Of a stretch of DNA of 64,000 nt, positions 27,219-61,063 are shown in pieces. A program made the translations under genes and the position numbers. The DNA comes from Flavobacteriia bacterium (GTDB lineage: Bacteria; Bacteroidota; Bacteroidia; Flavobacteriales_D; Crocinitomicaceae). The stretch's first letter is position 1. Each line of letters starts with the position of its first letter. Where the stretch lies: positions 2,980-66,979 of the forward strand of contig JBAWZN010000006.1 of NCBI GenBank assembly GCA_037143015.1. The letters are read 5' to 3'. Under the pieces are notes generated by a model. That model was not told the DNA's origin, made no database searches, and saw only the letters and a list, made by a program, of their open reading frames with translations.

Positions 27219-27887
27219 TTAATTTATCGGAGCGAGCTCCGAAGAAGTTATGAAATTCAAGTTATTTAAGTTCAATTCCCTGAACACATTGATAACGTCT
27301 TCCGCTTTTTGGTATTTTGTTTTGGAGTCAACTCGTAAAATGAATTTCGGTTTGAAATCTTCCGGATCAGGACTTTCGCCTTTCAGTTTTGCTTCTTCAA
27401 ACGCTGTTTTAGCAGAGTTTAAAGCGGCAGATCCGGCGTAACTAATCCAGTCATATAATTCATTAGTTTTAGTTGAATCCACTTGAATACCTTTCGTTTG
27501 GAAGGTGATGCGGGCATCCGCACCTGTATCAATGTAAGAAGGTAATTCTTGCATAGTACAACCAAATGTTGACATGAACGTGAACTTTTCGATTTGCTCT
27601 TCAGAAAGGCTCATTTTATACTTACCCATTATGTTTGTAAGCATTTCACGTCTTGCTTCAGCTCCTGACAAGTTAAAGAACACACGTCCATCTTGGTCAA
27701 TAGTCACCATAATCACGTTTTCAGGAATAAATTTATCACTGATACTTGAAGGGGTATTAACCGTAACTGGTTCACTTGCGCGGAAAGAAGCGGCCAACAT
27801 AAAGAATGTAACAAGCAAGAATGCCAAGTCCACCATAGGCGTCATGTCTATAGAAGGAGAACTTTTAGGTATTTTTAATTTAGGCAT
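27219..27887 (-). CDS. exbD: Biopolymer transport protein ExbD/TolR (second copy)
   Basis: IDMTPMVDLAFLLVTFFML signature. Confidence 0.85.
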   Translation of the reverse strand: MPKLKIPKSSPSIDMTPMVDLAFLLVTFFMLAASFRASEPVTVNTPSSISDKFIPENVIMVTIDQDGRVFFNLSGAEARREMLTNIMGKYKMSLSEEQIEKFTFMSTFGCTMQELPSYIDTGADARITFQTKGIQVDSTKTNELYDWISYAGSAALNSAKTAFEEAKLKGESPDPEDFKPKFILRVDSKTKYQKAEDVINVFRELNLNNLNFITSSELAPIN

Positions 27888-27917
27888 TGCTTGTTCCTTT
27901 AAATGTTAGACCAACAA

Positions 27918-29116: not shown

Positions 29117-30670
29117 TTAATCCAATTTCATTATCTTTTTTGACAACAATTCATTGCCAATTTTAGCGGAAACATAGAAAATCCCGTTCGACACCTGGTT
29201 TCCTTGGTCATTGTTTCCGTCCCAATGTAAGTCTTGAATACCGTTGACATTAGTCAGTTTCCGAATCAATTCTCCAGATGAGGAGTATAGGTAAACTTGA
29301 TCATTAACACCAAGCACCTCCGGTAAGTGAATATCGCAACCTTTGTTGAATGGATTCGGGAATACTTGAATGGAACCGGACTCATTGGGTAGATACTCTT
29401 CAACACTTGCATTAACAAATTGATTTAAGTCATAGTTTTCATCACCGTTTTGATAAGGTAGGTAATGAAAGTAAACCAGAAACATTTCATCTGTTGTGTT
29501 AAATCCACTATATACGTTTTGAGGTGGATTGTTTGGGTTATTCAGATTGTTCAAGGTATTGTCGAACGTTGCTTCTCCCTTCAATTTGTATCCAGTTGGA
29601 ACTTTTTGCATGTGCTGGAAAAAATAAAAATCCTGCCACATGAAATCCCATTTAGGAACATTGATGAACGGAATGGTATCCAAGTTTTGCTTGTAAGCAT
29701 AAGCCTTAATGTTCTTTCCGATCAAATGCATATGGGGGAAAACAGAAAGGACGGAATAATTGGATGGTAGCCCTGTTCCGCTCGGGGGGAATTGTGCTGT
29801 TAAGTTTGTTTCCTGATTGGCGGGTAGTGTAAAGTTATTATCCGCTATGAGCGGTCCTGCGGAAATTTGCCGCACACCAGTTGTGCCTAAAGGATAAAAG
29901 TGAAAAATAACTTTTGTGCTATCAAACTCCCCATAACTTCCCATGGGATAATGCATAGTCAGGTAAATACTCGATCCTGGTCCAATGTCGATACCTAATT
30001 TAAGTGGATCTACCGATGGTAAGATCATTGGAGTTGCCCCTGGTGTAAATCCGGTGACTAATTTGGTGGAAGCGTTACTCGGACTCGCACAATTTCCATC
30101 GAGCGTATCCGTACTTTCTACACTTGTTGGGTCAACATAAACGAGCGCATGGTGCACGATTTCTCGGTTTCCTGGAATCACCTCTACAGCTTTAATGATT
30201 CTGTTTTGCGTCAAATTTGTTGGAATGGAAAAACACACATAGTCGTCATGCGAAAGGGCCTTACTCATATATGTTGGAATTTGAACAGTCAAATCCCCAT
30301 TTCCTAAATAGGAACTATTCGAATAAACGGGCGGAGGAGGAGTAGCGGCCGCATTTCCCTCCGGAAAACCAAGATCTAGCCACGTTAAAATGGTCAATTT
30401 CTCTGAAGCACTCAAAGAACGATTGTGTAAATATTGTTGGTAGTTATTATCCGGTGGCCATGGCGGCATTTCATTGGTGTTGATGCATTGGTATACCAGT
30501 GATGCCATTGGACTCACATCATTAAAGGTCATGAGCGAGCTTGGCGCAGCACCACCTGGATGATGGCATTTCGTACATTTATTGTAGAAAATTTGCGCGA
30601 CTTCACCACTCCATGTTTGGGCGAATGTATTGGTGCAAATGAATAAAAGTGTGAAAAATAAAATCCTCAT
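29117..30670 (-). CDS. Secreted CxxCH-motif / copper type II (PHM/DBH-like) monooxygenase-fold protein with T9SS C-terminal sorting domain
   Basis: Signal peptide, then CTKCH with a downstream EMPPWPP. PHM-like motifs follow: DDYVCFSIP...REIVHHALVY, LTMHYP, FPHMHLIGK, WDFMWQDFY, TDEMFLVYFHY. The C-terminal 80 aa (VFPNPFNKG...GIFYVSAKIGNELLSKKIMKLD) is a type-A T9SS CTD. Confidence 0.7.
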   Translation of the reverse strand: MRILFFTLLFICTNTFAQTWSGEVAQIFYNKCTKCHHPGGAAPSSLMTFNDVSPMASLVYQCINTNEMPPWPPDNNYQQYLHNRSLSASEKLTILTWLDLGFPEGNAAATPPPPVYSNSSYLGNGDLTVQIPTYMSKALSHDDYVCFSIPTNLTQNRIIKAVEVIPGNREIVHHALVYVDPTSVESTDTLDGNCASPSNASTKLVTGFTPGATPMILPSVDPLKLGIDIGPGSSIYLTMHYPMGSYGEFDSTKVIFHFYPLGTTGVRQISAGPLIADNNFTLPANQETNLTAQFPPSGTGLPSNYSVLSVFPHMHLIGKNIKAYAYKQNLDTIPFINVPKWDFMWQDFYFFQHMQKVPTGYKLKGEATFDNTLNNLNNPNNPPQNVYSGFNTTDEMFLVYFHYLPYQNGDENYDLNQFVNASVEEYLPNESGSIQVFPNPFNKGCDIHLPEVLGVNDQVYLYSSSGELIRKLTNVNGIQDLHWDGNNDQGNQVSNGIFYVSAKIGNELLSKKIMKLD

Positions 30671-34809: not shown

Positions 34810-37356
34810 CTATTTTTGAATCATCAATTTCTGATTCTCGGTGCCGTTTGCATTTGTCAAACGTACTGTGTAGAATCCTGAAGAAAGAGTTGTTACATCG
34901 AATGATACATTGTTAGCACCAATTTCAATAGATTGATTCTGCTCAATAACACGACCAGTTGCATCGATTAATTCGATTTGAATTAGGTCATTTGTGTTTT
35001 GATCAAACGCAACGTTTACTGTTTCGTTTGTTGGATTAGGGAAGATTGTCAAGTTTGAACTTGTAGCAATTTCATTTAATCCAACTGTTACATCAACTAA
35101 GAAGATTGTCGTGTCTGTACAGTTTCCGTTGATAGCAGTCAAAACAACTGTGTATGTTCCGTTCACAGCATATGCGTGAGCAGGTGTTGCAGCAGAAGAA
35201 TTTGTGAAGTCACCAAAATCCCAAGAGTAAGAAGTTGCTCCAGTAGATGTATTGGTAAATGTCGCAACATTTCCAGCTAATGTCATTGTTCCAGCAGCAG
35301 TTGGAGTTGCATTGAATGTTACTGTAATTGGAGCAGAAGCACCAACACCGTTACATGCATTTGCATTTGTTGTGACAACGTTTACGTTAGCAGTAGTTGC
35401 AGTAACGTCAATACTTTGTGTTGTTGCACCAGTTGACCATAAGTAGCTATCAGAAGTTGAAGCTGTGATTGTAACTACATCACCAGTACAAGCTTCAGTT
35501 GCTGTAGCATTGATCGTAGGAGCTGGAGCGTTAGAAACGTTCACTGTTGTAGCAGCAGAAGTTGAAGCACATCCGTTTACATCTGTTACTGTTACAGAGT
35601 AAGATCCAGAAGTTGTAACGGTAATCGTTGATGTAGTTGCTGTCGTTGACCAAACGTTTCCTGTAGTTGAACTAGAGGCCAATTCCACTGAACCACCTGT
35701 ACAGAACGTTGTTGCTCCGTTTGCCGTAATTGTTGGTATTGCAGGCAAAGCGTTTACAGTTACGGTAACCATTGTACGTGGACCTTCATAACCTAAAGCG
35801 TTTGTTTGAGACACATAGTAATTTGATGTACCTGTCGTGGTAGTTGAAGGCGTTGGAGCAGGTATACTTGTCCCACCTATTGCTGTTGTGAACCAGTTGA
35901 TTGTGCAATCTTGGTTTCCAGTTGCCGTTAATGCGGAAGCTGTTGCTCCTTGACATAGGTTAATTACTGCAGTGGTTGTGGGGGCAGGGATAGTTACTGG
36001 GTTTAATGAAGCATCAAGAAAAGAGATGTTTGACAAAGCACTTGAAGCAGTTACAGGACGGAAGTCTGGGCTCAAATACGTGTTATTCACACCGTAAGGA
36101 AGTGTTAAGATGTTTGCAGACGAAGATAATGAGTCATTATTATTTGTTCCAAACCAAGCTGCGATTGCGAACGTACTTCCCGTGTTTTTCTCAACAGAAT
36201 AATTCGTTAAATGACCCGCAACTAAGTTGTTTTTATATTTCAAAACACCATTATTTGCATTTCCTTCACATGCTGTTCCATCGATATGGATTCCACGAAG
36301 ACCATCCATGAAGATGCTATTGTAAATTTTTAATCCGGAATTGCGGCGGATACGTGCACCTCTTCTGTATCCAGAAGCAACTGTTGCTGCAGTATTTCCT
36401 CTTAATGGACCAACGTAAGTTACGTTAGAGAACATTGCAGATGTTTGAGGGCTATTTGCTGAACCGGCAGCATCGTTATCTGACTCAAATCCTTCTGATG
36501 TAGAAACTGTTGGATTATCAGCAATCAATGGATCACGAACAGATAGACAGTATTGCACCAAGCCAGAGAATCCATTATCCGTATCGAAATCATCATCTAA
36601 GTTACGGTAAGACACTAAGTGGCGACAATTAACAGTTCCACCAAACCACTCGTATGCATCATCATTTGAGAAAGAAACTTGAACGAAATCGATAGTTGTT
36701 GCACGTCCAACAGAGCCCATTGTCAACCCATTGATTTCTTTATTTGGTTGATAAACATACCCAGGGAATTCAATTCTCACATAACGAAGAATACCTGAGT
36801 TGTCATTTGCATCTGGATTAAGTCCTCCACCATATTGAGTATCAAACGTTGGCGCTAAACCCTCAATGTTTGCGATTCCTCCAGCATTGTTATTGGTTGA
36901 TTTACCCATGATAATGATACCACCCCAATCGCCCAAGGCACGTTGTCCAACAGGTTGATTTGAAGTAAATACAATTGGGTTCGTTACTGTTCCATCAGCA
37001 ATTAATTTAGAACCTTGAGTAATAAATAATCCAGATCCAGCTGTGTTTTTGTCACCCATGACAACTGTTCCCGGTTGAATAGTTAAAGTTGCTCCGTTTT
37101 TAACGTAAATTTGACCTTGTAACAAATAGACATTGTTCGAGGTCCAAGTGGTGTTTGTAGTGATGGCAGCGGTAACCGTTATGTTCGAACTTTGGTAAAC
37201 CGTATTTTGCGGGTCCCAGTTTGTCCATGTATCGGTCCATTGTGCTGTAGGAGCTGGAGCGAATGCTCCTCTGTAATTAGTCGGCTGAAAGAAGCTCTGA
37301 CCAAAAGCGATAAGACTTACACAGAAGCTTAACGCGGTAAACGTAAATTTTTTCAT
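34810..37356 (-). CDS. T9SS-sorted multidomain cell-surface protein (unassigned N-terminal domain + Ig-like repeats + PKD + CTD)
   Basis: 848 aa with a signal peptide. About 440-aa N-terminal domain (GATLTIQPGTVVMG..., GDWGGIIIMG) with no family recognised. Cys-paired Thr/Ala-rich Ig-like repeats. PKD domain (YSWDFGDFTNSS...NGTYTVVLTAINGNC). Type-A CTD (LTIFPNPTNETVNV...GFYTVRLTNANGTENQKLMIQK). Confidence 0.7.
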   Translation of the reverse strand: MKKFTFTALSFCVSLIAFGQSFFQPTNYRGAFAPAPTAQWTDTWTNWDPQNTVYQSSNITVTAAITTNTTWTSNNVYLLQGQIYVKNGATLTIQPGTVVMGDKNTAGSGLFITQGSKLIADGTVTNPIVFTSNQPVGQRALGDWGGIIIMGKSTNNNAGGIANIEGLAPTFDTQYGGGLNPDANDNSGILRYVRIEFPGYVYQPNKEINGLTMGSVGRATTIDFVQVSFSNDDAYEWFGGTVNCRHLVSYRNLDDDFDTDNGFSGLVQYCLSVRDPLIADNPTVSTSEGFESDNDAAGSANSPQTSAMFSNVTYVGPLRGNTAATVASGYRRGARIRRNSGLKIYNSIFMDGLRGIHIDGTACEGNANNGVLKYKNNLVAGHLTNYSVEKNTGSTFAIAAWFGTNNNDSLSSSANILTLPYGVNNTYLSPDFRPVTASSALSNISFLDASLNPVTIPAPTTTAVINLCQGATASALTATGNQDCTINWFTTAIGGTSIPAPTPSTTTTGTSNYYVSQTNALGYEGPRTMVTVTVNALPAIPTITANGATTFCTGGSVELASSSTTGNVWSTTATTSTITVTTSGSYSVTVTDVNGCASTSAATTVNVSNAPAPTINATATEACTGDVVTITASTSDSYLWSTGATTQSIDVTATTANVNVVTTNANACNGVGASAPITVTFNATPTAAGTMTLAGNVATFTNTSTGATSYSWDFGDFTNSSAATPAHAYAVNGTYTVVLTAINGNCTDTTIFLVDVTVGLNEIATSSNLTIFPNPTNETVNVAFDQNTNDLIQIELIDATGRVIEQNQSIEIGANNVSFDVTTLSSGFYTVRLTNANGTENQKLMIQK

Positions 37357-40622: not shown

Positions 40623-43190
40623 TTAGTCGAACACCACTTTCATTTCCACACGTCTGTTTTTCTGACGTCCTTCCGGTGTCTCATTTGATGCGATTGGTTT
40701 TGTTTCACCGTAATATTGAATGACGAAACGTGTTGCATCGATTCCTTGTGAAACAAGATAGACCTTCACCGCTTCTGCACGTTTTTTAGAAAGAAGCATA
40801 TTAGCGGTATCGTCACCTTGATTATCTGTGTGTCCGGTAATTTCGAGTTTCCACGTTGGTTTTTTCTTCAACACTTCGGCTAATTCGCCTAAAGAAACTT
40901 TCGATCCATCTAAAATAACATCTTTCGCTACTTCGAATTCTAAGTTGTCGAATGCTGTTTTTAATACTTCAATAACGGCTTGTTCAATCACTGGACACCC
41001 TTTGTTTGATTTAGGACCTGGTGTATTCGGACAATCATCATCTTTATCTAGTAGTCCGTCTTTATCGCTGTCTTTATACGGACAACCTTTGTTGGCTGCC
41101 GGTCCAGCTAAGGTCGGACAATCATCGTCTTTATCTAAGATTCCATCGTTGTCACCGTCTTTGTATGGACAACCACGATTTTCTTGAGGGCCAGCGACAT
41201 CTGGACATTCATCGATGAAGTCATAAACGCCATCGGCATCTTTGTCCGGACAACCTTTGTTTTCTTTTGGACCAGCATTATCTGGGCACGCATCTTCTGC
41301 ATCTTGGACGCTATCGCCATCACGATCTGGACATCCTTTGAGTGCGAGTAATCCAGCAACGGTCGGACAAGCGTCCTCTGAATCAATGATTTTATCACCG
41401 TCTGTATCTGGGCATCCTTTGTATTCTTTTAATCCGGCAACATCTGGACAGGCATCTTTTTTGTCGATGATTTTATCACCATCTTTATCGGGACAGCCAT
41501 TGAATTCTTTAGTTCCTGCTTCGTTAATACAGTCATCATCAGAATCTGGAATGCCATCATTGTCCGTATCTGGGCAACCTTTGAATGCCCATGTTCCAGG
41601 AACATCCTTGCATTCATCTTTTCGATTAGAAACTTTGTCGTTGTCCTTGTCTTTTACTCGGTGATAAAGGATTGGAAAACGTGCACCAGCATAAAGTTCA
41701 ATTCCGCTCACTTTATTTTTTGCCAAGAGGGTTTTCATATCGGTAATTCCTAAAATGACTGGACCGATTCGCGTTGCTAAACCATATTTCATTCCACTGT
41801 ATTGATTCATCGAAATCGGCATGTATACACCGAAGTAAGGACTATCAAAACTTGGTGTAATGGAAAACTGATTTGCCGTTTTCACTTTGGAGTCCTTCCC
41901 TTTTGGAATCACATTCACCATGGAAGTAGCATTGATGTAAAATCCTTTCCAAATCTGGTAATCGAATTGAAAACTTACCGCAGTTGGTGTGCGCATTCTG
42001 AAAGTTTGAGATGGGTCTTGAAGCGAAACCCATTCTTTGTTTCCAGCATTAGAAGATTGTTGGATTAAACTGTCAATTATCCCGTCAAATCCTTCTAGGC
42101 TAGTCGCCGTATTAAAGGTTTGTAGGTTAAATAAATTCGAGGTGTTTACGGCAAAATTACGGCTTAATCCACCTTTTGTGAATTTCATGCTTCCCATATC
42201 TACAATGGATAATCCTGCACGTAGTTTGTACTTATTTTCATCTCGTCGCCATAAATTGGTTTCGCCGTCCATGTCGTATTTGAACTTTGCATATTTTGGA
42301 CGCCATTCGTATACAGCTCCGATATCTAGGCCAAAACCTAATTTCGACGATGGGTCAATTAGGTTTGCCAAACTTGGGTTTTGTCCAGCTATTCCATCAT
42401 TAATGATTCCATTGATGTTGTTGGAATAACCGTAATCAAACGTACCTGTCAAGTATTGGGAAGTATCCTCATTGACCAAATTATAGGAGAAGTCATCCGT
42501 GTAAACATAAGCTGCTGCATGTCCGAGCAACGCTTTTGGTGCGATGCCAATTTTTAAGAAATGTTCTTTGTTATCGATTAACACTTGAGAATAGTTGAAT
42601 CCAACTTCCGTCCAAGTCATGTAATTTACGTTGAATAATTGTTCATTGTAAACGGCGTTCCATAAACTGGGGTGCTCTAATCCGTCCTCTGCTAAAACGG
42701 CCAACTTTGGATCCATGTTGTCCACATTGACAATCGTTCTGTTTCTAACATTAAATCCAATTGCCGTTTTTTCATTGACATGAAACATTGTATTTAACAG
42801 GTCCACTTGGAAGTTGATGTTCGCCCCAAGTGTTTTTATGGAGGTTTCATCGTAGTTATGAACGACAAAACGATCAATAAAGCTAGAATCTGGTTGCGAC
42901 CAAGCATTAAATATATTTTGATCACCAAATGATTTATACCAGCCATATCCTTTTCCTCCTTGAGCGTTACGCATGGCATTTGCGTCAAAATACCCAAAGT
43001 TTTGATAAACATTCATGTTTGCTCCAAAAAGGAGCATGTCAAATTTGTAACGTCCATCGACAAAACTTGCTGGATTCACTTGGTTACCAATGACGCCAGC
43101 ATAGTTGCTCGATCCAAGTCCGAGGTAACTTTGCGCGTGAAATTTTGCTTGAACAGCAAAAAGGGAGAGACAGATGAGTAGTTTTTTCAT
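40623..43190 (-). CDS. OmpA-family outer-membrane protein with large N-terminal barrel-like domain and thrombospondin type-3 Ca-binding repeats
   Basis: 855 aa with a signal peptide. About 510-aa beta-rich N-terminal region. About 8 repeats of GCPDxDxDGxxDxxDxCP. C-terminal OmpA domain (ITGHTDNQGDDTANMLLSKKRAEAV...NRRVEMKV). Confidence 0.8.
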   Translation of the reverse strand: MKKLLICLSLFAVQAKFHAQSYLGLGSSNYAGVIGNQVNPASFVDGRYKFDMLLFGANMNVYQNFGYFDANAMRNAQGGKGYGWYKSFGDQNIFNAWSQPDSSFIDRFVVHNYDETSIKTLGANINFQVDLLNTMFHVNEKTAIGFNVRNRTIVNVDNMDPKLAVLAEDGLEHPSLWNAVYNEQLFNVNYMTWTEVGFNYSQVLIDNKEHFLKIGIAPKALLGHAAAYVYTDDFSYNLVNEDTSQYLTGTFDYGYSNNINGIINDGIAGQNPSLANLIDPSSKLGFGLDIGAVYEWRPKYAKFKYDMDGETNLWRRDENKYKLRAGLSIVDMGSMKFTKGGLSRNFAVNTSNLFNLQTFNTATSLEGFDGIIDSLIQQSSNAGNKEWVSLQDPSQTFRMRTPTAVSFQFDYQIWKGFYINATSMVNVIPKGKDSKVKTANQFSITPSFDSPYFGVYMPISMNQYSGMKYGLATRIGPVILGITDMKTLLAKNKVSGIELYAGARFPILYHRVKDKDNDKVSNRKDECKDVPGTWAFKGCPDTDNDGIPDSDDDCINEAGTKEFNGCPDKDGDKIIDKKDACPDVAGLKEYKGCPDTDGDKIIDSEDACPTVAGLLALKGCPDRDGDSVQDAEDACPDNAGPKENKGCPDKDADGVYDFIDECPDVAGPQENRGCPYKDGDNDGILDKDDDCPTLAGPAANKGCPYKDSDKDGLLDKDDDCPNTPGPKSNKGCPVIEQAVIEVLKTAFDNLEFEVAKDVILDGSKVSLGELAEVLKKKPTWKLEITGHTDNQGDDTANMLLSKKRAEAVKVYLVSQGIDATRFVIQYYGETKPIASNETPEGRQKNRRVEMKVVFD

Positions 43191-47670: not shown

Positions 47671-49902
47671 TTACAGACGTAATCTTAATTCATTTAGTTT
47701 ACGGTTGTCAACTACTTCAGCTGTTTTTCTTAATGCCCCAATAACTTGACCTTGGAATGAACCTTTCAAGGTTTTCGTCATTTCATCACGTTCAACTTTA
47801 AATGAAGTACTTGCTGGCGCTTTCGTTGTTTTCATGATTTGAACCATGTACACACCGCTTTTACCTTTTAAAGGCAAGGTACGTTTGCCATCTTTCATGA
47901 CAGAAGAGAATAGCATACCAATGATTTCTGGTTCGTATCCAACGTTTGCGATTTGTGGATTAGCAAAGGTAATCTCAGCTGTTTGAACCATTAAGTTAGA
48001 TTTTTTAGCTACAGATTTCAATGAATTTCCTTTGGACATTTGGTTCATGAATCTTTTTGCTTTTTTCTCAATAATGAGCTCTCTTTCCATTTCGGCTTTC
48101 ACATTTTCAAATGTTGGCTCTCCTTCTTCCTTAATGGAACTAACCATTCCGATAATGTACTTGTCTTTATCCTTGATTGGGTAGGTAGTCAATGATCCAA
48201 CTTCAACACCTTCGCTATACGCTAACTCAAGAATTTTGTCAGAAGCCATTGAAGTGGCAAAACCGTAAGTTTTAGGTGCTTTGTCCTCTAACATAATCGA
48301 ACGAGCAACATAGTTTGCTTGACGCACGATTGTATCAAACAAGCTTACTTTTTTCAACAAGTCTGAAGTTTTACCAATTTTTCTATCCAATTTATAAAGG
48401 ATATTATTGATTTCACTTTCTTTATTGCTGATGGTTTCCTCTGAAGCCTTAAACTGTTTTGAAATGGATGCCAATACTGGAAATTTGGAAGCATCTCTTT
48501 CCATCACTTCCACAATGTGAAAACCAAATTCTGTTTTCACTACTCCAAACTTGTTCAATGGAGCTGTAGCACAATAAGAACCGAATTCTGCAACCTTATC
48601 ACCTTCAAGGAAATTATCAATAACTCCGCCTGCTTTTTTGGATTGTGTATCATCTGAGAATTTATCTGATAGTGCAACAAAGTTATCCTTGTTAATCACT
48701 TTCAATAAGCTGTCTGCAGTTTTGCGTTTTGCGTCAATTACTTTTGCGTCTTTCGATCCACCAGTTGACAACAAAATGTGACGTGCTTTCAAACGTGACG
48801 GTGTAAAGCCAATTACTTTAGAAATCACCATATTTTCTTTCATGGCATATGGACCTACCACTTGACCAATTGCAGCTAATTTGAAAATCGTATCGTAAGA
48901 AATAGGATACGTTTGGTATTGATTTGATTTTGGATTTCCTTCTGGAACAGCAGTTGAACGTTTGTTGTTGAAATAAACTTTCACGTCACTATTTCGCAAC
49001 ACGTACAATGAGTCATTTGTAGAAGTAATAAATCCAGCTTTCAATTCATTTAGCGTTGAATTCATTTTATTCGTATCAGCTTTTGATGGAGCAACAACTA
49101 CATCAAATACTTTTACCTCGCGAGAAGAAGAACGAATCGCATATTTTTTATCCGCTTTGTGCTCATCATAGTAAGCTTGTAATTCGCTTTCCGAAACCTT
49201 AATATTTGCATCTGCGATGTCTGTGTAAGGACGGAAAACAAACGATATAGATTTCGTCTCTTTCGCTGAGTAATATTTATCTTCCGCTTCTAGGTTTGTC
49301 ACGTAAGCCGCTTGATCAAGAATGCCAAAGTATTTCTCGCGTTTTCTTGTATCCATGTAGTATTGCTTTGTTCCATTCCATTGTTGAACAGCTTGTGGTT
49401 CTTTGCTCGTTTTTAACTTCGTTAGCGTTGACTGAAGTTTTTTTCTTCCTTCCACCATCGATTGAGGAGAAACAACACCTGTTAGTGAATCAATAAAAAA
49501 TTGATTTAAGTCCTGAATAATATTGAATCCATCCGTTGCCAATAAATACGCGTTTAATTCACGTTCTGAAACTGAAATCCCCAACGCTTCGTACTCTTTA
49601 TTTAGAATGGTTGAATCCACTAAATAGTTCCAGCTATTGTCATTCGCAGATTCCATGTCAGCATCTGTGAACTCTTTGTTGTTCTGCATCGCTTGGTTTC
49701 TTCCTTGCTCCTGAAATTTGGCACTTGCAACCGTATACTCTTTCGGGTCAACTTTTTCCCCGTAAACAGTCCCAATCCCATATTGACCTTCATTTATTCC
49801 CAACATTTGTTGGTAATCTGATAAGATAAATGTTGCTAATGCAAGTCCTACAACTCCAACAAGTAATCCCGATTTCGAACGTATTTTCCCGATAATTGCC
49901 AT
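47671..49902 (-). CDS. ppiD: PpiD-like periplasmic chaperone / peptidyl-prolyl isomerase
   Basis: N-terminal anchor MAIIGKIRSKSGLLVGVVGLALATFILSD (SurA_N-type), and an internal parvulin domain (KARHILL...FGFHIVEV). Confidence 0.8.
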   Translation of the reverse strand: MAIIGKIRSKSGLLVGVVGLALATFILSDYQQMLGINEGQYGIGTVYGEKVDPKEYTVASAKFQEQGRNQAMQNNKEFTDADMESANDNSWNYLVDSTILNKEYEALGISVSERELNAYLLATDGFNIIQDLNQFFIDSLTGVVSPQSMVEGRKKLQSTLTKLKTSKEPQAVQQWNGTKQYYMDTRKREKYFGILDQAAYVTNLEAEDKYYSAKETKSISFVFRPYTDIADANIKVSESELQAYYDEHKADKKYAIRSSSREVKVFDVVVAPSKADTNKMNSTLNELKAGFITSTNDSLYVLRNSDVKVYFNNKRSTAVPEGNPKSNQYQTYPISYDTIFKLAAIGQVVGPYAMKENMVISKVIGFTPSRLKARHILLSTGGSKDAKVIDAKRKTADSLLKVINKDNFVALSDKFSDDTQSKKAGGVIDNFLEGDKVAEFGSYCATAPLNKFGVVKTEFGFHIVEVMERDASKFPVLASISKQFKASEETISNKESEINNILYKLDRKIGKTSDLLKKVSLFDTIVRQANYVARSIMLEDKAPKTYGFATSMASDKILELAYSEGVEVGSLTTYPIKDKDKYIIGMVSSIKEEGEPTFENVKAEMERELIIEKKAKRFMNQMSKGNSLKSVAKKSNLMVQTAEITFANPQIANVGYEPEIIGMLFSSVMKDGKRTLPLKGKSGVYMVQIMKTTKAPASTSFKVERDEMTKTLKGSFQGQVIGALRKTAEVVDNRKLNELRLRL

Positions 49903-49961: not shown

Positions 49962-49989
49962 AATAAAAAAGGAGGCTTATTTGCCTCCT
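49962..49989 (-). terminator. Intrinsic terminator after the giant repeat-protein gene
   Basis: AGGAGGC-TTATTT-GCCTCCT hairpin with the stop codon in the loop, followed on the minus strand by TTTTTTATT. Confidence 0.6.
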
Positions 49990-52900
49990 CCTTTTTGTGT
50001 TGTTTCACCTTTCGGTTTGGTTGGATTTGTTTCATTTTGTGGACTCTGCTGTCCAGTTGAAGGTTTATTTCCACCACCTGTTGTAGGTGTTTCCTTTGTC
50101 GAAGAAGGAGTTGTTGGACTTGCTGTGGGTTTCGCCGATGGTGCCGGAGTAGAAGTGGTTGGTTTCACCGGCGGCGGCGGAGTGGGTGCAACGGTTGGTT
50201 TCACAGGCGTAGGAGCCGCCGTGGGTTTAACAGGTGTTGGAGTTACAGTCGGCTTCACTGTTGCAGGGGCTGGTTTTGCTGGAATTGTCGGCGCTTGTCC
50301 TGATTGTTGTCCATTCGTCTTATTTTGCGTCGGCTGATTCTGCTGCATCATTCCATCGGAATTGCCTGATCCGCCGTTTGGACTTCCATCATCAAAGGTG
50401 ATGAGATATGATTTCGAATCCGAACCACAAGAACTAGTCGCTGTTAAAATAACTTCGTTATTACCTGGTGTAAGTGTCAAATTTGCACTGATTGTGCCAT
50501 TCAAGTTGATGAAATTTGTCAGGTAGGCCCCATTAAACATCAACTGAATAGCTGTACTTGGCGCATAGTTCGTCACCGTTGCTGTATAATTGAGGTTCGT
50601 TGAATTCGTTGTGCTTCCAGAACTCGGATCCGTTGTTACATTCACTAAAGGTGGAATGCAACTTTGGTAACGAATCGTGCGTGATTGAGTAGATGTTCCA
50701 CATGCATTCGTTGCAGTTAACACAATTTCATTCACTCCTTCTGGCAAGGTTATTGTCGAGGTGAAATTGTTGTTGACTAAGTTGAAATTAGAGACCAGAC
50801 TTCCTGCAACTGTCAGGCTAATCCCTTGGGTATTCGGCATGTTTATAATCGTTGCTTGAAAAGGAAAAACCGGACTATTTACCCCATAAAATAAATTCAA
50901 TGGATTTTGAATGCTCACAACGGGTGGTATGCATTGATTAAAGGTAATACTCGTTGTTTGACTATCCGTCCCACAACTATTTACCGCTGATAGTACAATC
51001 TGATTTAAGCCATTGGTTAAGGTTAATACGGCTGAAATCTGACCATTGGTGAAACTAGCATTTGGAATGATGTTGCCATTCAAAGTCAAGTTGATCCCTT
51101 GTCCATTTCCAATGTTTTGAACAGTTCCAGTGAAATTGTAACTCGCATTGGTTACCGATGTGTTGGATGTAATTGGATTGCTAATATTCACGACTGGAGC
51201 AAGACATTCTTCAAATTTGATGTAAACCGTTTTCGTATCGGTGCCGCATGCATTGTTTACTGTTACTTTTATTTCATTGTTCCCGTTCGAAAGATTCACA
51301 TTCGCTGAAATGTTTCCGTTTAACAAGTTGAAATTCGATACGTTCGTTCCATTCACACTTAAACTAATTTGTGGAAGTGTTGCATTTTGGACATTCGCTG
51401 TAAAGGCATAATTGCTTGAACTCACCGTGATACTGTTGCTAGATGGATTACTGATGTTAACCACTGGTGGGACACATGGATTATATGCCACATTAACGGT
51501 TTTACTTTCTGAACCACATGCACCGTTCGCGCTCAAGACAATGCTGTTGTTTCCTGTTGATAACGGAATAGTCGCGGAAACAAGTCCAGTAGTTGGGTTG
51601 AATTGAACGTTGCTTACTGGTACTCCATTCACCGTTAAACTCAAACCTTGTGCATTCGTCATGTTTTGTACAGACGCAGCGAAAGAAATGGAATTACTGG
51701 TTGCGGTGTAGTTAGTACCGCTTGGATTGTTTATCGTTACAACGGGTGCAACACACGGCTCGTAGCGAATCACACGGCTTTGCGCATCGTTTCCACAATT
51801 ATTCGTTGCAGAAAGGGAAATGGTATTCATCCCGTTCGATAAAGTAATGTTCGCAGTTACTTGTCCATTCGTGTAGTTGAATGCACTAATTGGAGATCCG
51901 TTTAAGGTCAACAAAATCCCTTGTACCGAACTCATGTTTGTTACATTCGCTGCAAAGGTGATGACTGGATTCGAAACACCATAATTGGTGTTTAATGGAT
52001 TGGTAATGGTCACTTGAGGAGCAGTACAAGCTTGGTAATTGATGGTTGCCGTTTTAGAATCTGTTCCACACGCATTCACTGCTGAAAGGACAAAAGTGTT
52101 TATTCCGGCATTCAAGTTGACATTTGCGCTGATCACTCCATTATTTAGGGTCGCATTTGAAACAGCCATTCCATTTAACTGCAATGAAATCCCTTGTAAA
52201 CTAGACATGTGTTGAACGTTTGCTTGGAATGTGTATGCAGCATTTGTGACAGAAAGATTGTTGCTCAGTGGATTCGATATTTGAACAATCGGAGCAATAC
52301 AATTTAGGTAATTCAACGTAAGTGATTTCATATCCGTGCCACATGCGTTCGTAGCGTTTATGACAAACGTGTTCATACCGGAAGCAAGGTTAACCGATGC
52401 GGATAGTTGTCCATTCGTGAACGTATAATTTGTAATGGATGAACCATTCAAACTCAACAAGAGACCCTGTGTTGTTGTGATGTTTTGAATAGCCGCAGTA
52501 AAGGTGTAGCCAGCTGTTGCAACCGTACCATTTACATTTGCTGGACTCGAAATAGTTACGACTGGTGCAGTACAATTGGTGTAGAAAATTGTGATTGTTT
52601 TAATATCAGTGCCACAAGCATTTGTCGCTTTTAAAACGATTGTGTTCAATCCATTTTGAAGATTGAGATTTGCGCTTACGGTTCCATTGTTGAAGCTGAA
52701 ATTTGAAAGGCTCGTTCCATTCAGACTAAGGAGAATTCCTTGAGAACTTGTCATGTTTTGAACGTTCGCTTGAAAAGCAAAACTTGCTGCATTCACAGAG
52801 GTTCCGCTGTTACTTGGATTCGTTATGGCAATTGTTGGCGCCGTACACGGAGTAAATTGAATATTCCAATTGTGTTGATCGGTTCCGCAATTGTTGCTAA

Positions 52901-55900
52901 CTGTTAAAACAAAGGAATTCACACCTGAAACAGGATTCACAGTTGCGCTGAATTGGCCATTCACCAAGGTAAAGGGACGTTGGATTCCATTTTGCGTAAA
53001 CACGGTATTTTGAGTAGTTGCGTTAGCAATTGTAGCTGTTAATGTTTGTGTGGCATTGGCAACAGAAACGACTGAGCTTACATTGTTTGAGAAGTTTGAA
53101 ATGGCAGGAGCGATACAATTATCGTAATTCACGGTAATCGTTTCCACATCAACACCACAGTCATTGCTGGCATTGAAGATAATGGTGTTTAAACCTGGAC
53201 TTAAAACCAGCGCTGCAGTTACCGCATTATTTCCGTTATTGAATGAAGTAGAAACACCATTTAATTTTAAACTCATGTTTAGAGACGTTGCACCAAGTAC
53301 GTTCGCGCTAAACGGGTAATTAGCATTGGTTACGGTAGTTCCCGATGCAATCGAGGAATTTAATTGAATGGTCGGTGGAATACATTGAACATAGTTTACC
53401 GTAAATGTTTCTGCATCGTTTCCACACGCATTGTTGACAGATAAAGTAATCGTGTTGATGCCATTCGTTAGGGTAATGTTTGCGTCAATGATGCCGTTGG
53501 CAAAAGTGAAGGGGATTTGTTGTCCGTTTTTGACCAACTGGATGTTTTGTGATTGAGCAATATTGGTTGCACTTGCTTTGAATCCAAGCGTTCCAAGATT
53601 TGTTGTCCCGCCTGTTGTAGTCGGTTGAATCAAGGTGATTTGAGGTGCGATGCAGTTGTTGTAATTAACCGTGATTGTTTTGGAATCACTTCCACAAGAA
53701 ACACTTGTAACTGTCACTACAAAGGTGTTCATACCAGGAATTAGCGTGGTTACGGCATTGATGATTCCAGCTGCTTGATTAAACGCGATCGGAGAGCCAT
53801 TTTGAGTCACCGTGATGGTTTGATTCGTTGGATTGTTCGTCGTAGATGTGCTACCTACTAAGGTAGAAGAAAGCGTGCTGGCAATTAAGTTATAAATGGA
53901 GGAATTCACTGTTCCACCCGCTGAAAGAACGGTTACGTTCGGTGTAATTCCTGTACAATTGATGTAATTAAATTGAATCGTTTCAACATCTGAACCACAG
54001 TTATTCGTTGCGGTAATCGTGATGCTGTTGTTTCCATTGACAGGATTCAATCCCAATTCGATTGCACCAGTTGTCGCATTAAACGTAAAATCCGATTGCT
54101 CGATTCCGTTCACAATGACTTTGATGTTTTGTTTTGTCGCAACGTTACTTACGATTGATTTCAAACGAATCGCATTCGCTGTTGCTGTAAGTGATTGATT
54201 TTGTAAGGGACTTTGAACTGAAATCGTTGGAGCATTACAATTTTGATAATTGATGGTCGTTAGTTCCACATCGTTTCCGCATCCATTGCTTACTTCTATG
54301 TTGAAGGTGTTTATTCCGGGACTAAGTGTTGTTGGAACTTGAATTTGTCCATTTGCCGACACCGTTACATTCGGTAAGGAAAGTCCATTTTGGAAAATTT
54401 TCAACTGAACATTTGCGAGGCTTCCTGTCAATGTTGCACTAATCGTGTAATTTGCGGAATTGGTTGTCGTTCCAGAAGCACTCGGATTTAATAACTGCAG
54501 GCTTACAGGGACACAATTGTCGTAATTGATGGTTGTGGTGTATGTATTCGTTCCGCAATCATTTGTAACGGTTAATTGAAGGGTGTTGACTCCCGGAACA
54601 AGAGTAATTGCACGCTGGATTAATCCATTAGCTTGGTTGTAGGTTGCTCCATTTAGCGCCATTCCATTCATCAACAATTTGATTCCATTGGCATTTACCG
54701 ATCCAAGTACAACCGCGCTAAAAGCAAAATCGTTTGTTTTTACCGTCATGTTTCCGCCGTTAGGATTCGTGAAAGTAGCGGTAGGAGTAACGCAATTTAA
54801 AAAATTAACGAAAACCGTTGCCGTTTCACTTCCGCAACTATTACTTGCTGTCAAGGAAAAGTTGTTTTGTCCTACATGCAATTGAACCAACGCACTCACA
54901 ACATTTGTTGAAGCATTGAAATCAAAAAGTACGGGTTGATTTTGGTCATTCAACAATGTTACACCATTCGAATTTAACAAGTTACTCACTTTAAATTCAA
55001 TGCGGTATTGATTATTAGTCACAGTTTTATTGTTTCCAGACGTCAAGGTCAACACGGGCTTTGGACAATTACTTGTCGAAGTGTAATTGTTGACATTGCT
55101 AGATGTATTTTCAGATGTATTTCCCCCTCGAGATTTAAAATTTATTCTTAGATAAGCGGAAGTGTAATGGTGCCAATCATTTTTCAAGCGTGGACTTTCC
55201 GAAATAAATCCATCAAATGAATCGCCTTTGGTGAAAGTCGTCTTGTGTTCGATGCCTAAGCTCGTTCTTTTCCCTACTTGATACCCTAGTCCAAAACCTA
55301 AACTGGGCATCCATTTTACTTTGTATTGATTATTAGAACCGCCATCCAGTCGCGTTTCATAAAGTCCATCTAACGTTGAAGGTAATTGTGGTCCAATTGG
55401 ACCAGCTTGTTGCAAAGCAGTGTAATCGTACAAGGAGCTAGAATCATTGGTATACAATAAATCACCATATGTTTGAGTCCAAGTCAAGCCAATTCCCCCA
55501 AAAACATAAGGGTCAATCCCTGTCTTTTCTCGAATTCCGTTCATGTGTAAAACGAGTTCTAAGGCAAGTCGACGAACATCGGTTTGGAAGTTGTTCACAT
55601 AGATGGAATTACTATCTATGTTGTAACTATCGAGTGGACCACCTTGATAATTTGATAGTGGAGTCACGCTCGTATCTTGTCCGACCCAAGTTCCAGTAAG
55701 GTAGCGTCCACGCAGGTCGAAACTTATTTTTTTACCGTAATTATAATTGTAGGAGCGACCAAGAATGAGTCCATAACCGGAACTATTGACATTTTTCACA
55801 TCAGTTGAATTCCAGGTAACACCGGCATTTAACCCAAAAAACCATTTAGAACTGATGTCGTAATTGATTCGTTGTGCTTGTGCAAATGAGATACTTAGTA

Positions 55901-55931
55901 AGAGTATGCTGAGAAAGTACAATTTTTTCAT
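49977..55931 (-). CDS. Giant (1984 aa) protein: N-terminal OM-beta-barrel-like region + 17 tandem two-Cys Ig-like repeats + Pro/Thr/Lys-rich tail
   Basis: Signal peptide MKKLYFLSILLLSISFAQAQ from the ATG at 55931. Residues to about 275 have a porin-like Gly/aromatic alternating pattern ending in YLRINF. Seventeen units of about 92 aa each start with C(I/T/V)(A/P)P and contain N(A/N/D)CG(T/S/N)D. The C-terminal 136 aa are low complexity. No T9SS CTD. Confidence 0.8.
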   Translation of the reverse strand: MKKLYFLSILLLSISFAQAQRINYDISSKWFFGLNAGVTWNSTDVKNVNSSGYGLILGRSYNYNYGKKISFDLRGRYLTGTWVGQDTSVTPLSNYQGGPLDSYNIDSNSIYVNNFQTDVRRLALELVLHMNGIREKTGIDPYVFGGIGLTWTQTYGDLLYTNDSSSLYDYTALQQAGPIGPQLPSTLDGLYETRLDGGSNNQYKVKWMPSLGFGLGYQVGKRTSLGIEHKTTFTKGDSFDGFISESPRLKNDWHHYTSAYLRINFKSRGGNTSENTSSNVNNYTSTSNCPKPVLTLTSGNNKTVTNNQYRIEFKVSNLLNSNGVTLLNDQNQPVLFDFNASTNVVSALVQLHVGQNNFSLTASNSCGSETATVFVNFLNCVTPTATFTNPNGGNMTVKTNDFAFSAVVLGSVNANGIKLLMNGMALNGATYNQANGLIQRAITLVPGVNTLQLTVTNDCGTNTYTTTINYDNCVPVSLQLLNPSASGTTTNSANYTISATLTGSLANVQLKIFQNGLSLPNVTVSANGQIQVPTTLSPGINTFNIEVSNGCGNDVELTTINYQNCNAPTISVQSPLQNQSLTATANAIRLKSIVSNVATKQNIKVIVNGIEQSDFTFNATTGAIELGLNPVNGNNSITITATNNCGSDVETIQFNYINCTGITPNVTVLSAGGTVNSSIYNLIASTLSSTLVGSTSTTNNPTNQTITVTQNGSPIAFNQAAGIINAVTTLIPGMNTFVVTVTSVSCGSDSKTITVNYNNCIAPQITLIQPTTTGGTTNLGTLGFKASATNIAQSQNIQLVKNGQQIPFTFANGIIDANITLTNGINTITLSVNNACGNDAETFTVNYVQCIPPTIQLNSSIASGTTVTNANYPFSANVLGATSLNMSLKLNGVSTSFNNGNNAVTAALVLSPGLNTIIFNASNDCGVDVETITVNYDNCIAPAISNFSNNVSSVVSVANATQTLTATIANATTQNTVFTQNGIQRPFTLVNGQFSATVNPVSGVNSFVLTVSNNCGTDQHNWNIQFTPCTAPTIAITNPSNSGTSVNAASFAFQANVQNMTSSQGILLSLNGTSLSNFSFNNGTVSANLNLQNGLNTIVLKATNACGTDIKTITIFYTNCTAPVVTISSPANVNGTVATAGYTFTAAIQNITTTQGLLLSLNGSSITNYTFTNGQLSASVNLASGMNTFVINATNACGTDMKSLTLNYLNCIAPIVQISNPLSNNLSVTNAAYTFQANVQHMSSLQGISLQLNGMAVSNATLNNGVISANVNLNAGINTFVLSAVNACGTDSKTATINYQACTAPQVTITNPLNTNYGVSNPVITFAANVTNMSSVQGILLTLNGSPISAFNYTNGQVTANITLSNGMNTISLSATNNCGNDAQSRVIRYEPCVAPVVTINNPSGTNYTATSNSISFAASVQNMTNAQGLSLTVNGVPVSNVQFNPTTGLVSATIPLSTGNNSIVLSANGACGSESKTVNVAYNPCVPPVVNISNPSSNSITVSSSNYAFTANVQNATLPQISLSVNGTNVSNFNLLNGNISANVNLSNGNNEIKVTVNNACGTDTKTVYIKFEECLAPVVNISNPITSNTSVTNASYNFTGTVQNIGNGQGINLTLNGNIIPNASFTNGQISAVLTLTNGLNQIVLSAVNSCGTDSQTTSITFNQCIPPVVSIQNPLNLFYGVNSPVFPFQATIINMPNTQGISLTVAGSLVSNFNLVNNNFTSTITLPEGVNEIVLTATNACGTSTQSRTIRYQSCIPPLVNVTTDPSSGSTTNSTNLNYTATVTNYAPSTAIQLMFNGAYLTNFINLNGTISANLTLTPGNNEVILTATSSCGSDSKSYLITFDDGSPNGGSGNSDGMMQQNQPTQNKTNGQQSGQAPTIPAKPAPATVKPTVTPTPVKPTAAPTPVKPTVAPTPPPPVKPTTSTPAPSAKPTASPTTPSSTKETPTTGGGNKPSTGQQSPQNETNPTKPKGETTQKGGGK
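50161..50277. repeat. Imperfect 27-nt tandem repeats encoding the KPT(V/A)xPTPV tail units
   Basis: GGTTTCAC-type unit starts at 50161, 50197, 50224 and 50251. The last three are spaced by exactly 27 nt. Confidence 0.55.
50388..55067. repeat. 17 x about 275-nt in-frame tandem domain repeats inside the giant gene
   Basis: Boundaries come from counting residues (first repeat Cys is ORF residue 296; the tail is the last 136 residues). Repeats 9-16 are the most alike. Confidence 0.75.
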
Positions 55932-56030
55932 AATCGGAATTTTTAGGTGCATTACCTATTTTCATGCCAAATTTCCGAAAAAAACGAAGAGAAAAAAAAT
56001 CAACAACTGAACTTGTTGAATCGTCAGGGG

Positions 56031-56918
56031 TTATTTGAAGTAGGTGAATTTTGTAAAGCGAAGAATCAGCAGGAAATTTGTGTCGACATCACGCTGAATC
56101 GTTGATCCTAGCAATTGTGTTTTTGTGTCAAAAACAATTTGAAGATCCTTTTGAAGTTGTCCGTATCTGAAATAGTGCACCTCGATTAAATTTCCAAATG
56201 GATCATAGCGGTATTTCCATTCTTGTTCTGCCAATTCATCGCGATCGTTAAAACGAGCTTTTGCCGCCAAAAGTCCGTGCTCGTCGTAGGAAAATTTTGT
56301 AACATGTTCAATGGAGCTCATGCGGTAATTCGTTTTCTTCTCAACCAGGTAACCATCTTTGTTAAAGAAGCTCACTTCATCCATGTAAGGGAGCTTATAC
56401 GAATTGTAGCGCAATTGTTCGCATTCATTTGGGCGCACAACATATTGAAAATACTCTGTATTAATCAAATTGGATTGAAGTACTTGATGACTTTGACTTT
56501 GATAGATTTCGCGATAAGTACTTTCGGATTGAAGTCTATTCAGGGAGTCGTAAACATATTTATAAGTAGTGAATCCGCCATTTTCTGTTTTCCGATGTTC
56601 AACAAGGAGGTTGCTGGCATTAAAGCAATATTGATGAAGCGTAGTATCTTTTTTTCGGTTGACGGTCCGAATATCTAAACTTTCGAGCAGCCGACCTTTT
56701 TCATCGAAACGGTAACGAAACCAATCAGAACTTTCCCGAATGACTTCTCCGGTTTTTTTAGTCGAGTAGTTTCCCTCTATGGATTTGATGTGATTGGATC
56801 GAATGACATCCGCATTGAAAAAGGGAGTTTCTGTAAACGCTTCTCCTTCTTGATTGAGAAGAATTTGCGAATGACAGAATAGTGGAAAAAGAATTAAAAA
56901 TCCAAACGCGATTTTCAC
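56031..56918 (-). CDS. Small secreted protein with YD/RHS-like repeat motifs
   Basis: 295 aa with a signal peptide. Repeated motifs YRFDEKGRLLES, YVYDSLNRLQSE, FSYDEHGLLAAK, YRYDPFGNLIEV resemble YD repeats. It starts 7 nt after the glyQS stop. Confidence 0.45.
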   Translation of the reverse strand: MKIAFGFLILFPLFCHSQILLNQEGEAFTETPFFNADVIRSNHIKSIEGNYSTKKTGEVIRESSDWFRYRFDEKGRLLESLDIRTVNRKKDTTLHQYCFNASNLLVEHRKTENGGFTTYKYVYDSLNRLQSESTYREIYQSQSHQVLQSNLINTEYFQYVVRPNECEQLRYNSYKLPYMDEVSFFNKDGYLVEKKTNYRMSSIEHVTKFSYDEHGLLAAKARFNDRDELAEQEWKYRYDPFGNLIEVHYFRYGQLQKDLQIVFDTKTQLLGSTIQRDVDTNFLLILRFTKFTYFK

Positions 56919-59704: not shown

Positions 59705-61063
59705 TTATGGAATAACAATTTTTTTCGATCCATTTTGTCCATTCACTTTGACGTAATAAATGCCTTTATATAAGGTATCTACATGGAAGTAAGCAATCGT
59801 ACTTCCTTGAACAATTTGTTGTGATTGGATGCGTTTTCCCAATGCGTCGTACAATTCAACGGTAAATGATTGATTTACCAACTCATTTACTTGAACCATG
59901 ATGATGTCATTACTTGGGTTTGGATACACTGTCCAGTCATTTTCTGATAATTCAGTGATTCCAGCAGATGACGTATAGTTTGTGACAGTCTCAGTGATAG
60001 AAGTCACTTTGGATGCTGTACGCACGCCATAAAACGTCGGGCCTACTACATAGGGATAAGCAGAATTCCATTCGCTATCTACTGTCGCAAAATAGCAATA
60101 GATTCCATTCGGATACTCTGGAGTCACGCAAACGCGTCCATTATGACTATCTAAATAATCTGCTTGTCCATTATGACTCACAAATTCATAATCTTCGCGG
60201 AAGTAACCTAACGGATAGGTTGTACTTACCACCGGACCATCCGGAACATCTGTTCCATCCGCCCAAACCGTGCGTGTGCTAATGTTACGTAACTGGTAAC
60301 CTGATTTTATACGCGTAATCCCACCTGTTCCATCGGCATTTTTATACCCATATGCTCCATAAATGGGAAATCCGTCATAGGCATATCCAATGATAGGCGA
60401 ATGTACCGTCGAGTCGATGACGTAAAGTCCATCGGCATCGTATAAGTCACACACATTTGAAATAACGGTTAAATCCAATTTAAACGCACTTGGATTTTGG
60501 TGGTGGTGGTAGTTACCCATTGCTGGATGTCCTTTGGAACAATCAAATCCTGCTTTTTCTGCAGGAATAGCATCACGGTTCCAAGACATGGCAGCCGTTG
60601 GTCCCCCAGGACACGGTGGATTTCCGGGTCCGCCGCAAAGCGCATTTGTAGTCGTATTCCATGCAACACCATCGCGGTAGTCAAATAAGGCTACTCCGTT
60701 TAAGAATATCCCAATGTTTCCACCTGATGTTGCTGTTGCCGTTCCGGTGTTTTGAGCTGGAATCAATGGCATTTTGAAAATCGCATTTTGACTCGTCGCC
60801 AAGGATGGATTACCATCCATAAATGGACCAGTGATATAGGATGGAACGCCTGTTGTGGAAACGTAAACCCAATTGTTTGAGTACTGAACCGTTTGAACAT
60901 TGGCTAACGTAGTTTCGTTGATTGGTGTTGAATTCCCTTGGACATAATGTCTTCCGGTAATACCTGTGGAGTTGATTAACCAATGTTCAATGGCTGGATT
61001 TAACTGTGCCATCGCTTGATTTCCAAAGCAAAGGAAAAGGATAAAGTGGATTGTTTTTTTCAT
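59705..61063 (-). CDS. YHYH-domain protein with T9SS C-terminal sorting domain
   Basis: 452 aa with a signal peptide. GHPAMGNYHHHQNPS (YHYH-type motif). C-terminal WTVYPNPSNDIIMVQV...GIYYVKVNGQNGSKKIVIP is a type-A CTD. Confidence 0.7.
   Translation of the reverse strand: MKKTIHFILFLCFGNQAMAQLNPAIEHWLINSTGITGRHYVQGNSTPINETTLANVQTVQYSNNWVYVSTTGVPSYITGPFMDGNPSLATSQNAIFKMPLIPAQNTGTATATSGGNIGIFLNGVALFDYRDGVAWNTTTNALCGGPGNPPCPGGPTAAMSWNRDAIPAEKAGFDCSKGHPAMGNYHHHQNPSAFKLDLTVISNVCDLYDADGLYVIDSTVHSPIIGYAYDGFPIYGAYGYKNADGTGGITRIKSGYQLRNISTRTVWADGTDVPDGPVVSTTYPLGYFREDYEFVSHNGQADYLDSHNGRVCVTPEYPNGIYCYFATVDSEWNSAYPYVVGPTFYGVRTASKVTSITETVTNYTSSAGITELSENDWTVYPNPSNDIIMVQVNELVNQSFTVELYDALGKRIQSQQIVQGSTIAYFHVDTLYKGIYYVKVNGQNGSKKIVIP

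Follow-up and report, generated by a model that had tools for sequence, protein, structure and literature searches.

Layout of the gene

The window analysed here is a 64,000-nucleotide stretch of contig JBAWZN010000006.1, from a Flavobacteriia bacterium assigned to the Crocinitomicaceae, and all positions below refer to it unless a related locus is named. On its minus strand lies a gene for a giant protein composed of a Sec signal peptide, a predicted small outer-membrane β-barrel, a flexible hinge, 17 tandem immunoglobulin (Ig)-like repeats and a basic, low-complexity tail. The open reading frame (ORF; 49977..55952) gives 1991 residues when counted from its first ATG. Because homologue alignments put the start at MKKLYF (55931), in agreement with the original prediction made from the sequence of this locus, we take this to be the true start, and the protein would then be 1984 residues long.

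Residues 1-19 (MKKLYFLSILLLSISFAQA; 55875..55931) form the Sec signal peptide, and the family alignments show no variation at M1 or at Q20. Cleavage would be expected before Gln20, that is, between MKKLYFLSILLLSISFAQA and Q, as suggested by the AQA/Q motif and by the 'Q-rule' of Bacteroidota.

An OmpA-class barrel and a disordered hinge

The region that follows the signal peptide (residues 20-265; 55137..55874) had been described as porin-like. AlphaFold2 was run on residues 1-387 with 23 homologues (mean predicted local distance difference test score, pLDDT, 78.8), and in the resulting model this region forms an eight-stranded barrel (strands 29-42, 50-61, 69-90, 111-130, 139-156, 204-219, 223-233 and 253-264), with the long loops L2, L3 and L4 on one side and short turns on the other. 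The model thus sides with the original prediction and speaks against a soluble or non-barrel N-terminal region. In a Foldseek search of the PDB the top match for the barrel was the transmembrane domain of OmpA (9fzd/9fzc, target TM 0.68-0.72), and the further top matches, NspA, Ail, OmpW, PagL and OmpX, are likewise all eight-stranded. The 12-stranded conventional autotransporter barrels EstA, EspP, AIDA-I and NalP appeared lower in the list with low TM, and neither intimin nor invasin was among the 50 PDB matches listed. A profile search against all PDB sequences returned no relatives. The Pfam model OMP_b-brl, the comparison originally suggested for this region, scored 28.0 bits, just below its cut-off of 28.7, and the sole NCBIfam match was PorG at 21.8 bits against a cut-off of 130. 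The barrel is 84% identical among 11 orthologues. Given the eight strands and the uniformly eight-stranded top matches, we assign the N-terminal module, on the strength of the structural model, to the small OmpA/OmpX class of real barrels. A catalytic, PagL-like barrel was considered and dropped, since the conserved E125, H129, E228 and K230 alternate with lipid-facing leucines; read from this alternation in the sequence, the four residues would form a salt-bridge network in the lumen, as in OmpA.

The barrel is followed in the same model by a disordered stretch (269-287, pLDDT <50) and then by an Ig-like domain. The polar hinge delimited in this way (residues 266-288, KSRGGNTSENTSSNVNNYTSTSN; 55068..55136) is unconserved in relatives, where it can be Pro-rich, in the manner of the OmpA hinge, or strongly acidic, and its length is roughly constant, the first repeat beginning near residues 286-296 in most members. 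By its sequence, the hinge does not look like a constrained membrane-crossing segment.

Seventeen two-cysteine Ig-like domains

The repeat region (residues 289-1848; 50388..55067) was delimited by Cys spacing, a repeat hidden Markov model (HMM), AlphaFold2 and Pfam. The protein contains exactly 34 Cys residues, whose spacings alternate between 75-87 and 14 residues and so mark out 17 units of 89-101 residues, each with one Cys at its start and the other in an N-x-C-G-x-D motif. The repeat HMM also finds 17 units, the number given in the original prediction. In an AlphaFold2 model of units 9-11 (pLDDT 91) every unit is a β-sandwich, as had been expected of an Ig fold; the N-x-C-G-x-D motif forms the turn joining the last two strands and the first Cys lies just ahead of strand A. 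These two sites share one domain end in Ig and FN3 folds, and a full strand separates the second Cys from the first Cys of the next unit, so that intradomain disulfides would be the sole geometrically plausible pairing.

The best PDB matches of units 9-11 are poly-Ig fragments of the titin I-band (I67-I69, TM 0.55), which points to an extended chain of the beads-on-a-string type. Counting about 4 nm for each domain, we estimate its extended length at ~70 nm, the tail being extra. The repeat family, which the original prediction could not name, is placed by Pfam in generic Ig-like families, namely Cadherin-like, Glucodextran_B and Big_7 across this protein and its relatives and the first two in the protein itself. 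The units are 19-56% identical to one another, with units 9-16 forming a younger block. A recent repeat expansion was rejected on account of this divergence and because Tandem Repeats Finder detects no DNA-level repeat. The Ig region is poor in charge (4.6% D, E, K and R) and rich in N, T and S (39.4%). The Bacteroidota O-glycosylation motif D-[ST]-[AILVMT] has no sites, a result that is uninformative.

A basic tail with a conserved end and an overlapping terminator

The 136-residue Pro/Thr/Lys tail noted earlier was confirmed by its composition (21% P, 19% T and 10% K, without an aromatic or aliphatic core), carries a net charge of about +9 and has no match in Pfam. Its low-complexity part covers residues 1849-1979 (49995..50387), and the last residues are KGGGK (49980..49994). 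Among 11 orthologues with 17 repeats, identity is 51% in the rest of the tail versus 96% in the last five residues. A G-G-G-[K/R] ending is present in 47 of 60 complete orthologues and a Gly-rich end in 55 of them, while Lys occupies position -5 in 43; the sequence ends with K in 30 of these orthologues, with R in 21 and with some other residue in nine. Elsewhere in the family the tails are Pro/Thr/Lys-rich, Glu/Lys/Ala-rich or Gly-rich, depending on lineage. A net positive charge is found in the tails of 132 of 193 members and in the last 10 residues of 111 of 133 representatives.

The gene also has a terminator of its own, as proposed. An intrinsic hairpin (49965..49994; -17.4 kcal/mol, z = -5.4) takes in the last codons and holds the stop codon in its loop, and a U-run follows. 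In many lineages the terminator has its 5' arm and its loop in the codons GGA GGA GGC AAA TAA, and compensatory covariation, GGC..GCC versus GGT..ACC, is seen at the 3' ends of orthologues (loci L003-L078). The same bases thus double as a conserved peptide end and an RNA hairpin. That KGGGK is kept merely as a terminator stem was rejected: the motif survives with GGT, GGC and GGG codons and at loci without a hairpin, which argues that K-G-G-G-[K/R] is selected at the protein level. To our knowledge this ending fits no sorting signal.

A large family in the Crocinitomicaceae

A genome scan found relatives in at least 311 species-level genomes, the best 80 of which are all freshwater Crocinitomicaceae or Flavobacteriales metagenome-assembled genomes. 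In a profile search of 1.84 billion representative proteins there were 921 matches at E<=0.001 and 384 clusters at 50% identity with E<1e-30; nearly all members are 700-2900 residues long with the barrel N-terminal. Searches of protein databases for homologues gave only fragments of up to 491 residues, and full-length relatives were taken from the representative library and from genome loci. The number of genomes and clusters that carry relatives makes the feature far more than a chance arrangement. Repeat number, counted with the repeat HMM, ranges from 3 to 24 per member (median 12), and among close orthologues the order of the units is preserved, the differences being deletions of internal units. 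Comparison of homologue length and repeat number had been proposed as a check with the original prediction. The architecture is the norm of a large, uncharacterised Crocinitomicaceae family and no one-off oddity. In the source databases the members are named only 'hypothetical protein', 'large repetitive protein' or 'Ig-like domain-containing protein', and the literature that we searched does not describe this architecture.

Several relatives show variations around this plan. In a sister clade (locus L084) a stand-alone 265-residue barrel paralogue (6001-6798 of that locus) lies directly upstream of a full-length member (7052-10126), and the same order, a barrel gene followed by a gene for barrel plus repeats, is seen in L085, P0027 and P0184-P0187. 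Genes for CHU_C and PorP_SprF proteins lie divergently upstream in L001, L002, L084 and L086. A short Cys/His-rich C-terminal module (I-C-H-Y-P-P-G-N..Q-T-L-E-I-P-L-S-A-W-P-A-H-Q-A-H-G-D..C-P) occurs in L047, L062, L065, L080, L081 and L084 (about 9500-10126 in the last), sometimes in several copies. It stands in place of the Pro-rich tail or ahead of it, does not occur in the window protein, and may be a metal-binding mini-domain.

Secretion class

The original prediction pointed out that the protein lacks a signal for secretion by the type IX system (T9SS), and this was borne out well beyond the single sequence. Pfam and NCBIfam detect no T9SS C-terminal domain in the window protein, be it of type A (Por_Secre_tail), type B (CHU_C) or type C (ChiA-type), and none in 29 diverse relatives, while the same searches do recover Por_Secre_tail in other genes of the window. 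Queries of 193 members by phmmer with the local T9SS C-terminal domains and OmpA_C gave no matches. The homologues examined therefore offer no sign of a T9SS domain that has simply diverged in this protein. That the protein is nevertheless T9SS cargo whose divergent signal consists of the tail and K-G-G-G-[KR], with export of the folded chain via SprA while it is still joined to its own barrel, we consider very unlikely. The window holds T9SS cargo and PorP/SprF genes, the sister clade has the CHU_C and PorP_SprF genes mentioned above, the composition of the Ig region resembles that of cargo, and the extreme C-terminus is strongly conserved. All T9SS signals that we know of, however, are folded β-sandwich domains of 70-100 residues, the low-complexity tail matches no type A, B or C model, and a chain fixed at the periplasmic end of the barrel would force the polar hinge across the membrane.

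The order of the modules, with the barrel first, Ig-like repeats after it and no T9SS signal, had suggested an inverse autotransporter (type Ve), in which the Ig passenger would be secreted by way of the pore of its own N-terminal barrel. Membership in this family now appears extremely unlikely. The barrel has eight strands where 12 are expected; only conventional autotransporter barrels, at low TM, stand among the 50 structural matches listed, with no intimin or invasin; and the PDB profile search was empty. The inverse-autotransporter model IAT_beta (PF11924) gave no match even at E<=10 when the barrel was searched on its own, where only OMP_b-brl responded. By Pfam, IAT_beta and OmpA_C (PF00691) are absent from the window protein and the 29 relatives, as are LysM, Big_1 and a lectin-like tip. 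The unconserved hinge and the long-range Cys pair in every domain likewise count against passage through the barrel. The protein also differs from the RTX giant adhesins of the type I secretion system (T1SS), as it has a Sec signal peptide and no RTX or Hemolysin-type Pfam match, and from PorG, as it falls far below the equivalog cut-off and is not a stand-alone barrel of ~210 residues.

Which side of the outer membrane

We tentatively favour, with a probability of roughly 45%, a long, extensible, titin-like tether or scaffold that is anchored in the outer membrane and docks with its basic tail on the cell wall or inner envelope. Once the protein has been exported by Sec and its signal peptide removed, the eight-stranded barrel would insert into the outer membrane, serving as an anchor only. 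The flexible hinge would leave strand 8 on the periplasmic face and carry the 17 disulfide-stapled Ig-like domains, followed by the cationic Pro/Thr/Lys spacer that ends in K-G-G-G-K. The poly-Ig chain would then run beneath the outer membrane, and the basic tail and C-terminus might dock, non-covalently or by a lysine cross-link, on an anionic partner of the inner envelope; peptidoglycan, the inner-membrane surface and a protein are candidates. The tether function and the docking partner are inferred.

A periplasmic location is suggested by the rule on the topology of even-stranded barrels. Unless a segment threads a wide lumen, all solved barrels of this kind that we know of have both termini in the periplasm, and an eight-stranded barrel has no such lumen; OmpA, NspA, Ail, OmpW and OmpX all have both termini in the periplasm. 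Long loops closed by disulfides in the periplasm are known to stop threading of the autotransporter type, and the 17 Cys pairs, 75-87 residues apart, are compatible with a chain that folds and stays there. Pro/Lys-rich or Glu/Lys/Ala-rich composition characterises the periplasm-spanning spacers of TonB and TolA, and by analogy the family's tails, which share this composition, are mostly net positive and have the conserved K-G-G-G-[KR] end, would suit a periplasmic role. The disordered, variable hinge, the lack of T9SS, OmpA_C, IAT_beta and RTX signals and the neighbouring gene for a PpiD-like chaperone (see below) point in the same direction. Bacteroidota are without Tol-Pal and Lpp-type tethers (PMC12204202), which gives such a tether a plausible niche. 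Of the barrel-anchored periplasmic ruler offered as one possibility in the original prediction, the periplasmic chain agrees with OmpA topology, while a measuring function does not hold: members with 3 to 24 repeats share no fixed length, and 17 units, when extended, would far exceed the width of the periplasm.

Several observations weigh against placing the chain in the periplasm. One conflict is with composition: the Ig region, with 4.6% charged residues and 39% N+T+S (family median 8.6% charged), lies below the nine T9SS-secreted proteins that we compared (10-16% charged) and far below about fourteen periplasm-facing ones (20-32%), two classes that do not overlap in this small sample drawn from the same window and related loci. 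By composition, therefore, the Ig chain looks extracellular, beyond even the local T9SS cargo. A chain of ~70 nm by our estimate would far exceed the periplasm width when extended, and a plastic repeat number, with units deleted between close species, would be more in keeping with surface fibres. The window protein has no peptidoglycan-binding domain, and no docking partner was identified. The association with PpiD is also imperfect, as the adjacency is lost in the distant loci L088 and L089 and in L002, and the giant gene has its own terminator and appears to form a transcription unit separate from PpiD. We rank the topology rule above a correlation of composition that comes from a small sample, but the conflict is real.

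A surface fibre or adhesin, held by the barrel and with the Ig chain and tail outside, is on balance doubtful, though the composition of the Ig region, the predicted extended chain and the plastic repeat number speak for it. The roughly constant length of the hinge would also suit it, Pro/Thr linkers are common in extracellular enzymes, and the Hop adhesins of Helicobacter pair an eight-stranded barrel with a large extracellular domain. The route would have to be neither T9SS nor classical type V; coupling to the extracellular dome of the Bacteroidota β-barrel assembly machinery (BAM), or placement of the hinge at an interface with a second outer-membrane protein, are candidates. The BAM of Bacteroidota is mostly extracellular and has been proposed to assemble complexes of barrels with surface proteins (PMC12578637), and a phylum-specific display mechanism is therefore conceivable. 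That display would constitute a new mode independent of both T9SS and type V, perhaps via the BAM dome and with K-G-G-G-[KR] as a new terminal signal, we judge rather unlikely. Against an outside location stand the solved even-stranded barrels, none of which is known to have an outside terminus unless a segment threads a wide lumen, and the hinge, which is unconserved and in some relatives highly acidic. With 17 long-range Cys pairs, the threading of an unfolded chain would be hindered. Neither a lipobox nor a T9SS C-terminal domain is present, and no strand follows the tail by which the chain could be inserted as a loop.

Comparison with known systems

The tether that we favour has its closest counterpart in the OmpA family, represented by the E. 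coli protein and, in the same window, by the protein encoded at 40623-43190. Both share the N-terminal eight-stranded barrel, the flexible hinge and a C-terminal part, but where OmpA has the peptidoglycan-binding OmpA_C domain, the giant protein has 17 Ig-like domains and a basic low-complexity tail, and there is no detectable sequence relation to any PDB chain. The architecture, in which a poly-Ig chain and a basic tail are attached to an OmpA-type anchor, is unusual. Intimin and invasin share the order of barrel and Ig-like repeats as well as Sec export, but they possess a 12-stranded IAT_beta barrel, Big_1 repeats, a lectin-like tip and often a periplasmic LysM domain, none of which was found here. 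Their barrel lumen holds a conserved linker; the hinge of the window protein is disordered in the model and unconserved in relatives. PorG of the T9SS is also a small eight-stranded Bacteroidota barrel but lacks a C-terminal extension, and at 21.8 bits against a cut-off of 130 the likeness is one of generic barrel similarity. In the 'type Vf-like' Hop proteins the extracellular domain is inserted between strand 1 and strands 2-8, unlike the extension described here, which comes after strand 8 and has nothing beyond the tail that could rejoin the barrel.

The titin I-band is likewise an extended tandem of Ig domains with short linkers, but titin is cytoplasmic and eukaryotic. The giant adhesins SiiE, LapA and MpIBP also present tandem Ig domains with short linkers as beads on a string; these bacterial giants lack a Sec signal peptide and, as substrates of the T1SS, carry RTX repeats and a C-terminal T1SS signal, whereas the window protein has a signal peptide and a fused barrel. 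With Lpp the likeness, by analogy only, lies in an N-terminus in the outer membrane and a basic C-terminal residue directed toward the wall, and the lipid anchor and coiled coil of Lpp are absent. Lpp-type attachment relies on an invariant C-terminal Lys that an L,D-transpeptidase joins to mDAP; such a cross-link via the last Lys could not be general here, because only 30 of 60 orthologues end in Lys and 21 end in Arg. The resemblance to TonB and TolA is again an analogy, limited to their Pro/Lys-rich or Glu/Lys/Ala-rich spacers.

Crocinitomicaceae are abundant freshwater Bacteroidota, and the window protein is among the largest in this family of bacteria, with unstudied relatives in hundreds of genomes. 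If the tether is real, it would represent an envelope tether of a new kind, in which an OmpA-type anchor bears a poly-Ig chain that can extend and a basic tail for docking; with the chain outside, the protein would be an exception to the topology rule that holds for small barrels and would establish a new route of display. How the outer membrane is attached to the wall in Bacteroidota is an open question (PMC12204202).

Genomic neighbourhood

Immediately downstream of the giant gene, on the same strand, is a gene for a 743-residue PpiD-like chaperone (47671..49902) with an N-terminal membrane anchor, SurA_N and parvulin domains (Pfam SurA_N_2 and Rotamase). It occupies this position in all 57 loci for which downstream DNA is available, including those with other upstream genes and another gene beyond PpiD, and also in the sister clade represented by L086 (47% barrel identity). 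An operon with PpiD is weakened as an explanation by the strong terminator and by the loss of adjacency in distant members. The link is one of conserved synteny, with an operon not proven, and as terminators flank both of its sides the giant gene looks monocistronic. Upstream lie a gene for glycine-tRNA ligase and, directly adjoining, one for a 295-residue signal-peptide protein with YD/RHS repeats and a GTG start (56031-56918, minus strand), which has the same position in 39 related loci. Between the YD/RHS gene and the giant gene lies a small hairpin with a T-run (about 55991-56018).

Farther away on the minus strand, an 855-residue protein with thrombospondin type 3 repeats and a C-terminal OmpA_C domain (TSP_3 and OmpA_C; 40623-43190, 25% charged residues) is the organism's conventional OmpA-type wall tether. 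Also on the minus strand are two T9SS cargo genes, one with PKD/Ig_7 and Por_Secre_tail (34810-37356) and one with YHYH and Por_Secre_tail (59705-61063), a likely third encoding a copper monooxygenase with a FlgD_ig-like C-terminus (29117-30670), and a PorP/SprF gene (4532-5515). The three cargo proteins contain 10-14% charged residues, and the presence of cargo and PorP/SprF genes in the window indicates that the organism uses the T9SS. A run of four small minus-strand ORFs (25693-28721) encodes proteins of 215-288 residues with membrane-protein-like N-termini, one of them very basic (33% charged), and might be an ExbB/ExbD/TonB-type cluster.

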